64,000 bases of DNA from a virus (lineage: Duplodnaviria > Heunggongvirae > Uroviricota > Caudoviricetes), in the IMG/VR virus record IMGVR_UViG_2684623127_000006; one strand, written 5' to 3'. The notes beneath the pieces were generated by a model. That model searched no databases, was not told the origin of the DNA, and worked only from the letters and a program-made list of their open reading frames with translations. Numbering within the stretch: position 1 is the stretch's first letter; each line of letters opens with the position of its first letter. Positions 7,646-9,155 of the stretch are shown here, one piece after another. The translations under genes were made by a program, and so were the position numbers.

Positions 7646-8308
7646 TCAAATAAAACCAGCTGCCTTCCGGCGTTCGTATTCCTGTTTCAGCCGTTCAATT
7701 GGCGTTGGCCCTTGCGGGTGTTTCGCCCCTTCCAGTTGTCGTCGCACTGGCGGAACACTCATCCCGTTACCAACATGCTTTGCCCATTTCGTCAGTTGCC
7801 GTTCCGCAAGTCGTTTTAACTCACCTTGCGTCATCTGGCGCTCAATCCCTCTGGTACGCATTTCGAGGCAGATGTGGTACAGCACAGGCTGTGGCCACGG
7901 GTATTTATCACTCCCGTCGTATCGCCAGGATTCATTGCGCCAGCGCCGGTACTCTTCCATCACGGCATCCACCGTAAGACCAAATGGATTTGCCCCACTC
8001 TCCGAAATCAGCGCAACAAACTCAGCCAGGTCCGGGGGCCACGTTTCACCCGCCCGGCAGCGGTCCATGCACTGACGGCACACCAGACGGATTTGCTGTT
8101 CAGTCATCGCACCAATCTGGGCAATCCAGAGCTTCGAAGGTGCGGCCCCGTTCTTCTGAGTCCAGCGGTTCGAATACACCTCCCCCATGAGCTCCCACAG
8201 CTTCCAGGCCGTTTCCGTTGCTGATAAATCCGTTGTCACGTTCCCACTGTTCGCGTGCAGCCCGGATTTCCTGAACTGCCCGTGATGCCGTGCCACCTGA
8301 TGCTGCAT
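7646..8308 (-). CDS. Replication protein P-like helicase loader
   Basis: 220 aa; similarity to lambda P over both halves; ATG with GGGGGA SD; overlaps 3' end of the O-like gene in another frame. Confidence 0.6.
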   Translation of the reverse strand: MQHQVARHHGQFRKSGLHANSGNVTTDLSATETAWKLWELMGEVYSNRWTQKNGAAPSKLWIAQIGAMTEQQIRLVCRQCMDRCRAGETWPPDLAEFVALISESGANPFGLTVDAVMEEYRRWRNESWRYDGSDKYPWPQPVLYHICLEMRTRGIERQMTQGELKRLAERQLTKWAKHVGNGMSVPPVRRQLEGAKHPQGPTPIERLKQEYERRKAAGFI

Positions 8309-9155
8309 GGCTTCCCCCCTTGCTGACTGGTTTTACCTGTGCCCTGACGTGCTGCACGTGGCGGGCAAATTTCTGCTCCCACTGAACCTGCGTGAAAACC
8401 TTCCCCTCCGCCATCCAGTAATCCCGGAATGCGGCAAGCTCAGCAGGTGTAAATTCCGGCTCAGGCAGAGCCATACCCCACACTGCTGCCCGTTGTCGAA
8501 AATCCGGCGACGGCTGCCAGACAGTAGTCATCGAAAATTTCCCGATCGGTTCGCTCAGGCCGTCCAGGTATTCAGGTTCGGCTGTCTGCAACGGCGCACC
8601 ATTCGACTCACTGGTCGGAATACTCTCGCGCGCGTTATGTGTGGGGTTTAATTCTGTATCTGTATCTTTATCTGTATCTTTATCTGTATCTTTATCTGTC
8701 GTGACTTGTCGTGACAGATGCGTGACACGTCGTGACTCATCGTGACAATCAGCATTATGTTTCCGCAGCTTTTCCCGCTCCCGCTGCGCTCTCTTGCGCT
8801 CTGCCGGGGATTTTGCCGTTTGCGAAACGTTACCATTGTCCTCTTTCAGCACCTGACGTTTTTCCCATCCGGAAATAAGGTCACCATCCAGAACCCGCCC
8901 CTGCATTGCATGCAAAATTGAATCAATTACGTCTTCCGTCACATCAAGCGCACTTGCTAAATCTTCCGTCGTGACATCAATGTGACCACGTAGTGACACG
9001 CCGTGACATGTCGTGACATTTCGTGACGCGCTCACCAGAAGATGGATATACACTGCCATCACTGTTGCGATTGGCTGTCCTGATACCCTGGCAATCGTTC
9101 GCCACTTGGGGTCATTTGGCATGTCATGCCACAATCTGAGCCAGGCATTAGCCAT
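8100..9155 (-). CDS. Replication initiator (O-like) with C-terminal DnaT-like domain
   Basis: C-terminal KFSMTTVWQPSPDFRQRAAVWGMALPEPEFTPAELAAFRDYWMAEGKVFTQVQWEQKFAR resembles DnaT; iterons inside the gene. Confidence 0.65.
   Translation of the reverse strand: MANAWLRLWHDMPNDPKWRTIARVSGQPIATVMAVYIHLLVSASRNVTTCHGVSLRGHIDVTTEDLASALDVTEDVIDSILHAMQGRVLDGDLISGWEKRQVLKEDNGNVSQTAKSPAERKRAQREREKLRKHNADCHDESRRVTHLSRQVTTDKDTDKDTDKDTDTELNPTHNARESIPTSESNGAPLQTAEPEYLDGLSEPIGKFSMTTVWQPSPDFRQRAAVWGMALPEPEFTPAELAAFRDYWMAEGKVFTQVQWEQKFARHVQHVRAQVKPVSKGGSHAASGGTASRAVQEIRAAREQWERDNGFISNGNGLEAVGAHGGGVFEPLDSEERGRTFEALDCPDWCDD
8651..8750. repeat. Origin-type repeats: three TATCTGTATCTT units followed by five CGTGAC iterons at about 10-bp spacing
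   Basis: Direct repeats read in sequence inside the O-like gene (encodes TDKDTDKDTDKDTD). Confidence 0.6.
8960..9030. repeat. Second iteron cluster: six (C)GTGAC(A) repeats at about 10-bp spacing
   Basis: Direct repeats read in sequence within the 5' part of the O-like gene. Confidence 0.5.

Follow-up and report, generated by a model that had tools for sequence, protein, structure and literature searches.

A lambda-like replication module in an Escherichia coli O157:H7 prophage with a long, partitioned O/P gene overlap and a probable two-array origin within O

In phage lambda, the genes lie in the order cro, cII, initiator (O) and helicase loader (P), the origin sits in the initiator gene, over the codons of the inter-domain linker, as one set of four iterons (39034-39118) followed along the direction of transcription by an AT-rich stretch, and the O and P genes overlap by 4 nucleotides (nt). 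The lambda iterons are inverted repeats of 18 base pairs (bp) (PMC6022878). A comparable gene pair has been described as DopC/DopE in Cellvibrionales and Oceanospirillales, in which the gene of an O-like protein, with an N-terminal helix-turn-helix (HTH) and a DnaT-type C-terminal part, immediately precedes that of a lambda-P-family protein; these are domesticated chromosomal genes, no iteron-like sequences were found in dopC, and an overlap is unmentioned (Brezellec et al.; PMC5509034). Here, we analyzed the O-like and P-like genes at positions 7,646 to 9,155 of a 64,000-nt stretch of caudoviral DNA (IMG/VR record IMGVR_UViG_2684623127_000006; the stretch at its full length is hereafter called the window). 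The pair shares with lambda the gene order, with a cII-like gene, the layout of the putative origin, a loader of the lambda P family as judged by hidden Markov model (HMM) and fold, and a loader gene that begins before the initiator gene ends, but it differs in that the overlap spans 209 nt, that two sets of 5-6 short direct repeats stand in place of one iteron set, and that the initiator carries a DnaT-type domain and an N-domain matching only PHROG replication-initiator families, with no lambda O homologue recognized by Pfam. From DopC/DopE, whose two-gene architecture it reproduces, the prophage pair differs by carrying iterons and by overlapping over ~200 nt. The locus is thus probably a lambda-like O/P/ori module in which a long, partitioned gene overlap is combined with a two-array origin within O.

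The O-like open reading frame (ORF) was found to run to 8100, as the original prediction had it, and the 209 nt that it shares with the P-like gene are read by P in the +1 frame relative to O. To see how widely this arrangement is distributed, homologues were drawn from IMG/VR scans and contig look-ups, which yielded 172 distinct related loci; a P search of a species-representative genome collection returned a single locus, from E. albertii. With a long upstream ORF defined as one of at least 150 residues, 171 of the 172 loci possessed such an ORF that passed the P start codon and reached the conserved P core or beyond, always with P in the +1 frame, and the remaining locus had no long upstream ORF. 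A homologue whose O-like gene ended before the P start, which would have contradicted the predicted overlap, was sought among these loci and not found. Clustering of P at 80% identity gave 14 lineages, from E. coli, Klebsiella, Salmonella, Enterobacter, Symbiopectobacterium and uncultured phages, over which the overlap measured 113-254 nt.

The start signals of P were retained throughout this diversity. The position of the P ATG was shared by 14/14 lineages, with GGAGG, GAGG or GGGGG and an A-rich stretch ahead of it, and these signals were kept although the surrounding O linker varied in both length and sequence. The prediction of a good ribosome-binding site was therefore sound except for its position, 8308 being the start codon, with the Shine-Dalgarno sequence at 8314-8321. 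As far as these signals allow it to be judged, P is translated from its own Shine-Dalgarno sequence and ATG, independently of O. The 120-nt region around the P start folded no better than shuffled sequences (z = 0.27), on which ground we rejected the idea that P initiation depends on an RNA structure opened by ribosomes translating O.

To resolve how the two frames divide the shared bases, nucleotide diversity by codon position was computed from 49 distinct sequences. Over P codons 1-32, the diversity at O positions 1, 2 and 3 was 0.067, 0.036 and 0.135, respectively, marking the O frame as the one under selection, and over P codons 33-69, the diversity at P positions 1, 2 and 3 was 0.030, 0.031 and 0.157, marking the P frame. 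The master frame accordingly switches at about P codon 33: the first ~96 nt are kept for O, where P has a disordered leader of 26-32 residues, and the last ~110 nt are kept for P, where O has a disordered, poorly conserved tail. The same division emerged from protein alignments of the 14 lineages, in which the O motif S-R-A-V-Q-x-I-R-A-A-R-E was conserved where the P leader varied, and the P core was conserved where the O tail varied. In the AlphaFold2 model of O, the C-terminal helix (residues 291-307) had a predicted local distance difference test score (pLDDT) of 73-80, and residues 308-351 had one of 39-52. No double constraint over the same bases was seen, each half showing the codon pattern of a single frame. 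Each protein lays its disordered end over the structured end of its partner, and the overlap is real without being doubly constrained.

Both profile and fold comparisons placed the P-like protein in the lambda P helicase-loader family. It scored 57.9 bits against Pfam PF06992 (cutoff 26) over residues 58-187, and phrog_109, 'P-like helicase loader', matched residues 18-220 (E = 1.5e-62). Its AlphaFold2 model, built on a 30-sequence alignment with a mean pLDDT of 75, had the lambda P chains of the DnaB complex 9oa1 as the top Foldseek matches (E = 4e-6, probability 1.0), with 198-226 aligned columns and a template modelling (TM) score of ~0.4, a value expected for an extended multi-helix protein. 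The predicted resemblance to lambda P across the whole length thus held at the level of profile and fold, but not of direct sequence similarity, which was confined to residues ~69-192. By homology, P would bind host DnaB and deliver it to the initiator-origin complex. In the model, residues 1-26 had a pLDDT below 50, helices occupied residues 25-45, 47-53 and 59-66, and residues 31-70 reached ~79-84. The family alignment, which covers many genera, showed strong conservation from about residue 33 (AWxLWExMGEIYSNRW..KNG), so that the conserved stretch begins upstream of both Met41 and Met68.

The initiator was predicted to consist of a folded N-domain (residues 1-100), a disordered linker (142-186), a DnaT-type domain binding single-stranded DNA (~195-273), the C-terminal helix and the disordered tail. 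A Pfam scan of the 351-residue protein returned only PF17948 DnaT (residues 207-273, 62.5 bits, cutoff 25), and an NCBIfam scan returned only DnaT, below its cutoff; neither placed the protein in the lambda O family. It is therefore O-like in role and position, and by these HMM tests lies outside the lambda O family. The N-domain was recognized by PHROG as a phage replication-initiation domain, with matches to phrog_3729 and phrog_1408, 'replication initiation protein' (E = 6e-95 and 4.5e-119), and weaker ones to replisome-organizer and DnaD-like families; close relatives are named 'phage replisome organizer' at NCBI. No Pfam model matched the N-domain, and Foldseek gave no significant match for it, returning only weak winged-helix regulators (E > 0.5). 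The DnaT domain matched 4ou6 and 6aeq in Foldseek with 57-58% identity and TM(target) of 0.89-0.93. As an observation in its own right, the phage initiator at window positions 8337-8573 thus carries a host primosomal DnaT-type domain 57-58% identical to DnaT of E. coli and Salmonella, a likeness that suggests a fairly recent exchange between host and phage.

The unit made of the C-terminal O helix and P was attached to at least four unrelated N-terminal types of O, namely that of this window, a DUF1376/YdaU type, a 'MSIDA(L/M)RWAKK' type and an Enterobacter type. Conversely, phages Evi (L004) and 640R1 (L005) have the N-domain and iterons of this window followed by another C-terminal half, and they lack a P gene.

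Within the O gene, the two separate CGTGAC clusters of the original prediction were recovered (Table 1), and both are kept at the DNA level in relatives, as described below. Read in gene orientation as GTCACG, the exact copies have their + strand start coordinates at 8700, 8710, 8721, 8731 and 8741 in array B and at 8970, 9002, 9012 and 9022 in array A, where the gaps are filled in register by the one-off copies GTCACT and GTCACA. All 11 cores point in one orientation, one per helical turn. The array centres lie ~276 bp apart, with array A ~230 bp upstream of array B. The window contains 44 GTCACG matches against 30 expected, and the nine that fall within the two arrays are far beyond chance. 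A single set of four inverted-repeat iterons of ~18 bp, as in lambda, was not found; there are 6 + 5 direct repeats with a core of 5-6 bp, and since the lambda annotation shows one four-iteron set, the departure from lambda that had been proposed is genuine.

The AT-rich 12-bp direct repeat was likewise found where it had been predicted, adjoining one cluster, array B. GC content in the region is lowest (27.5%) over the stretch 8653-8699, where A and T are also distributed very unequally between the strands, and the repeats of this stretch are a candidate DNA-unwinding element; the GC profile showed nothing comparable beside array A. Array B with this stretch reproduces the lambda-type layout, in which repeats precede an AT-rich region where the initiator gene codes for the linker. 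According to the O model, the DNA of array B and the 12-bp repeats is translated into the disordered linker (residues 142-186), and that of array A into a beta-hairpin (47-56) of lower confidence in an otherwise confident N-domain, a hairpin that tolerates a deletion of 7 residues. O157 strains differ from one another by 12-bp units (matches 1789 to 1801 bases long), with two to five copies among relatives.

Table 1. Positions of the features of the O/P module and of one upstream gene in the window
Feature	Position	Strand	Remarks
O-like initiator gene, 351 residues	8100..9155	-	ATG at 9155, TGA at 8100; the same ORF is called in RefSeq
P-like helicase-loader gene, 220 residues	7646..8308	-	ATG at 8306-8308; assigned by PF06992, phrog_109 and fold
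Out-of-frame O/P overlap, 209 nt	8100..8308	-	O codons 283-351 and stop; P codons 1-70
Shine-Dalgarno sequence AAGGGGGG for P	8314..8321	-	5 bases before the ATG, within the O coding sequence
Code of the O C-terminal helix, residues 291-307, SRAVQEIRAAREQWERD	8235..8285	-	the same bases encode the unconserved, disordered P leader
P-dominated half of the overlap	8103..8212	-	P residues 33-69, first conserved helices; O reads a disordered tail
Met68 ATG, RefSeq P start (ATGACTGA, 8-nt overlap with the O stop)	8105..8107	-	judged a truncated call
Array A, six GTCAC cores (four exact GTCACG), period 10-11 bp	8970-9027	-	encodes part of the N-domain beta-hairpin, residues 43-62
Array B, five GTCACG spaced 10/11/10/10 bp	8700-8746	-	encodes part of the disordered linker, residues 137-152
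AT-rich 12-bp direct repeats ATAAAGATACAG (gene orientation), 3.9 copies, 97% matches	8653-8699	-	abuts array B; encodes DKDT repeats; candidate unwinding element
cI-like repressor with S24 peptidase domain	9967-10605	+	upstream of the O/P pair

Several lines of evidence indicated that both arrays are maintained as DNA. In 80 close relatives, array B varied in its spacers but not in its cores, and array A was nearly invariant; in phages Evi and 640R1, array A was shorter by exactly 21 bp, or two repeats. Both arrays were present in all 29 dereplicated homologues, many of them environmental, down to ~50-55% protein identity, with at least four GTCAC at nt ~128-159 (array A) and two to five at ~390-450 (array B), and two homologues (L093 and L096) encoded a different peptide at array A and retained four GTCAC. 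When the amino acids were fixed and the synonymous codons shuffled for each array in the 14 lineages, ~1 GTCAC per array was obtained by chance, compared with the 2-6 observed (P <0.0005 to 0.02 for each array, in 14/14 lineages). Distant homologues had GAYAARGAY repeats, equivalent to the 12-bp repeats, after array B.

In a diverged subfamily (L332-L334), the cores of both arrays read CGAACGC, not GTCAC, with their positions unchanged and GATAAAGATACAG-type repeats coming next; here a DnaG-like zinc-ribbon gene and a DnaB_C/AAA_25 gene come after the initiator. Because both arrays switched together, it can be argued that one protein reads both and that both matter. The selection at the DNA level and this concerted change are indirect support for binding of the iterons by the cognate initiator. 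The O type of K. aerogenes and Salmonella that shares the same P unit has a single AAAACGG array, and therefore the two-array design belongs to the N-domain family and not to the P module. Exact k-mer counting revealed no arrays in the O types of Rac-SA53, PPompW, Symbiopectobacterium and Enterobacter, although this method also missed the known iterons of lambda.

Computation thus establishes that the long overlap and its start signals are conserved, that the overlap is partitioned and that a co-varying pair of arrays runs through the family; other explanations have to be weighed. The long overlap could be an illusion of annotation, with P starting at Met68 or Met41 and the upstream frame untranslated. 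The databases do present P in this way: RefSeq (PGAP) gives a P of 153 residues from Met68, as does the record of phage Rac-SA53, the GenBank record of a Shiga toxin (Stx) phage starts later still (140 residues), PGAP calls forms of ~180 residues in other genera, and ATGACTGA at the O stop is a classic coupling junction. Callers of metagenomes and genomes that keep the long P omit the O gene instead (L008, L010 and L011), which leaves an apparent gene-free gap of 800-900 bp. The first 32 codons of the long P also lack P-frame constraint, and Met41 is nearly invariant. However, residues 33-67 are among the best conserved, their variation falls at P third positions and their helices have a pLDDT of ~79-84; Met68 is not conserved, being Leu in many lineages, and a start there would drop 67 residues including three predicted helices conserved across genera, just as a start at Met41 would cut the AWxLWE motif and helix 25-45. 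Together with the Shine-Dalgarno sequence and ATG fixed amid a variable O linker in 14/14 lineages, these points make a merely apparent overlap unlikely. Less probable still is a programmed +1 ribosomal frameshift that joins O and P into one polypeptide containing every conserved segment. It would suit the invariable +1 position of P and the behaviour of phrog_15931, a family of 482 positions that O matches at 1-347 and P at 279-482, but the conserved Shine-Dalgarno sequence and ATG explain P expression unaided, no stable RNA structure is present at the site (z = 0.27), a fused frame occurred in 0/171 loci, and no natural O-P fusion protein was present among the protein matches or loci examined.

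As for array A, the view that it is a control site outside the origin proper, at which O bound within its gene would block or throttle O/P transcription or which titrates or pairs with array B to limit initiation, is a real if doubtful possibility. No AT-rich element adjoins array A, transcription coming from the early promoter side crosses it on the way to array B, and its spacing to array B is not phase-conserved; moreover, second iteron sets in plasmids act negatively, as in P1 incA and F incC. Its conservation and covariation, which show only that the same protein recognizes both arrays, speak neither for nor against control, and the origin of a lytic phage has a less obvious need for copy-number restraint. 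We considered it very unlikely that array A is a by-product without function at the DNA level, that is, a relic of array B duplication or simply the codons of SRNVT..RGH.DVT. Such an origin would account for the conservation of the array A peptide in many homologues and for the similar short peptides (CH, SR, VT) encoded by both arrays, but fixed amino acids give ~1 GTCAC at array A against the 4-6 observed in the 14 lineages, L093 and L096 altered the peptide and kept four GTCAC, a whole subfamily changed both arrays to CGAACGC, and the array changes in size by whole repeat pairs of 21 bp.

Returning to the lambda-like module with a partitioned overlap and a two-array origin, the following points weigh against it or against parts of it. 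The near-invariance of Met41 makes a start there, besides or in place of Met1, possible by sequence; the P leader is unconstrained, and the evidence backing its presence in the protein consists of the conserved ATG and Shine-Dalgarno sequence. When P was resampled synonymously, the O tail stayed open with per-lineage probabilities of 0.07-0.39, which a rough Fisher combination by hand brought to ~0.06, weak evidence that selection keeps the tail open beyond the helix, and in two lineages (L009 and L262) O stops much earlier. The O helix could bind DnaB or another factor rather than P. The distance between the arrays varies from 206 to 274 bp without helical phase and so gives no positive support for a rigid loop, and the concerted change of the arrays could owe something to gene conversion between them.

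With these reservations, a mechanism can be proposed for the module. Array B and the AT-rich 12-bp repeats would be the counterpart of the lambda iterons and AT-rich region. With one repeat in each helical turn, the N-domains of O would line a single face of the DNA along both arrays, and contact between the arrays would loop or wrap the intervening DNA, stressing the AT-rich repeats until they open; the DnaT-type domain would then hold the single strands, and the C-terminal helix would bring in P-DnaB. We infer that this helix docks P or P-DnaB, and a looping or a control role of array A is likewise conceivable. In lambda, O failed to complement when the N-terminal part of P was expressed, and the replication-defective mutants recovered included one that had lost the last 35 codons of O (PMC6022878). 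As the O helix is encoded in the 5' end of P, recombination could not separate the partners, and the helix-plus-P unit would thereby become joinable to many different origin-binding domains. Only tentatively do we advance the full combination of these ideas, namely an obligatorily bipartite origin, in which the initiator bridges the arrays, loops ~230 bp and opens the AT-rich element while the arrays and the DNA-binding domain co-evolve, together with an O/P overlap selected as a 'genetic lock'. If true, the lock would explain the shuffling of the helix-plus-P unit among unrelated origin-binding domains.

The stretch was 100% identical to many E. coli O157:H7 chromosomes, and by this identity and its gene content the module serves the replication of an E. 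coli O157:H7 lambdoid prophage and lies in its early-right operon, on the minus strand. On that strand, a P22-Cro-like gene is followed by a YdaT/CII-like gene and then by the O-like, P-like and DUF1627 genes, so that the O/P pair has cI-, Cro- and CII/YdaT-like genes upstream and DUF1627 downstream. In an identical RefSeq chromosome, the Cro-like gene (window ~9633-9876) is flagged as a frameshifted pseudogene and the cI-like repressor is represented only by a 112-residue C-terminal 'LexA family protein'; a cI-like ORF of 212 residues with HTH and S24 peptidase domains is open in the window. In the prophage copy of E. coli 2010C-3142 (NZ_CP034801.1), the IS3-family element IS1203 interrupts the DnaT-like O gene, indicating that this replication gene is dispensable in the lysogen.

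Among the database records, a large share of the initiator entries are 'partial' proteins from short contigs (P0121-P0300), possibly caused by breaks of short-read assemblies at the iteron and 12-bp repeats. The double match to phrog_15931 raises the separate possibility that some deposited phages carry a fused O-P ORF, whether real or due to a one-base sequencing error. Elsewhere in the window, evenly spaced GTCACG drew attention to a 162-bp tandem repeat at 34406-34938 (3.3 copies, 95% matches); the unit being a multiple of three, it probably encodes a repeated 54-residue protein segment.

Both the overlap and the array pair are real and widespread in relatives, and standard annotation misses or mis-calls them. 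In practical terms, annotation routinely truncates the P loader gene of these prophages, a family that thousands of E. coli, Salmonella, Klebsiella and Enterobacter genomes carry. The partitioned overlap offers a clear example of disordered ends placed over the structured ends of a partner, and suggests how interacting partners remain linked in highly mosaic phage genomes. The origin, in turn, is a natural variant of the lambda paradigm whose second, co-evolving array could be removed by synonymous recoding, which would tell whether bridging of the arrays contributes to origin opening or to control. Shiga-toxin-producing E. coli harbour such prophages, and in these bacteria the output of toxin depends in part on prophage replication. 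We found no published description of the overlap, of GTCAC iterons or of a two-array lambdoid origin in a literature search that left subscription journals mostly uncovered, so that earlier work may exist.

Beyond lambda and DopC/DopE, the closest parallels lie in systems in which one initiator serves two sets of repeats. The gp38 protein of phage SPP1 binds direct repeats beside an AT-rich unwinding element, oriL lies within gene 38, and there are two binding regions; the likeness to the prophage O is one of organization, and close relatives of this O bear the NCBI name 'phage replisome organizer'. SPP1 differs in that oriL and oriR are ~13 kb apart and each has an AT-rich element, whereas the prophage arrays lie ~230 bp apart in one gene and only one of them has such an element. 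Satellite phage P4 likewise has two clusters of one short repeat (ori and crr), bound by its initiator and both needed in cis, but they are kilobases apart, the initiator is a primase-helicase (alpha protein), and there is no P-type loader. In the P1 (incC/incA) and F plasmids, two iteron arrays for one initiator flank its gene or lie near it; the plasmid iterons measure ~19-22 bp and the second set serves copy-number control, whereas the prophage repeats measure 10-11 bp and both arrays are intragenic. By likeness to P1 and F, the second array of the prophage is a candidate for pairing or titration.

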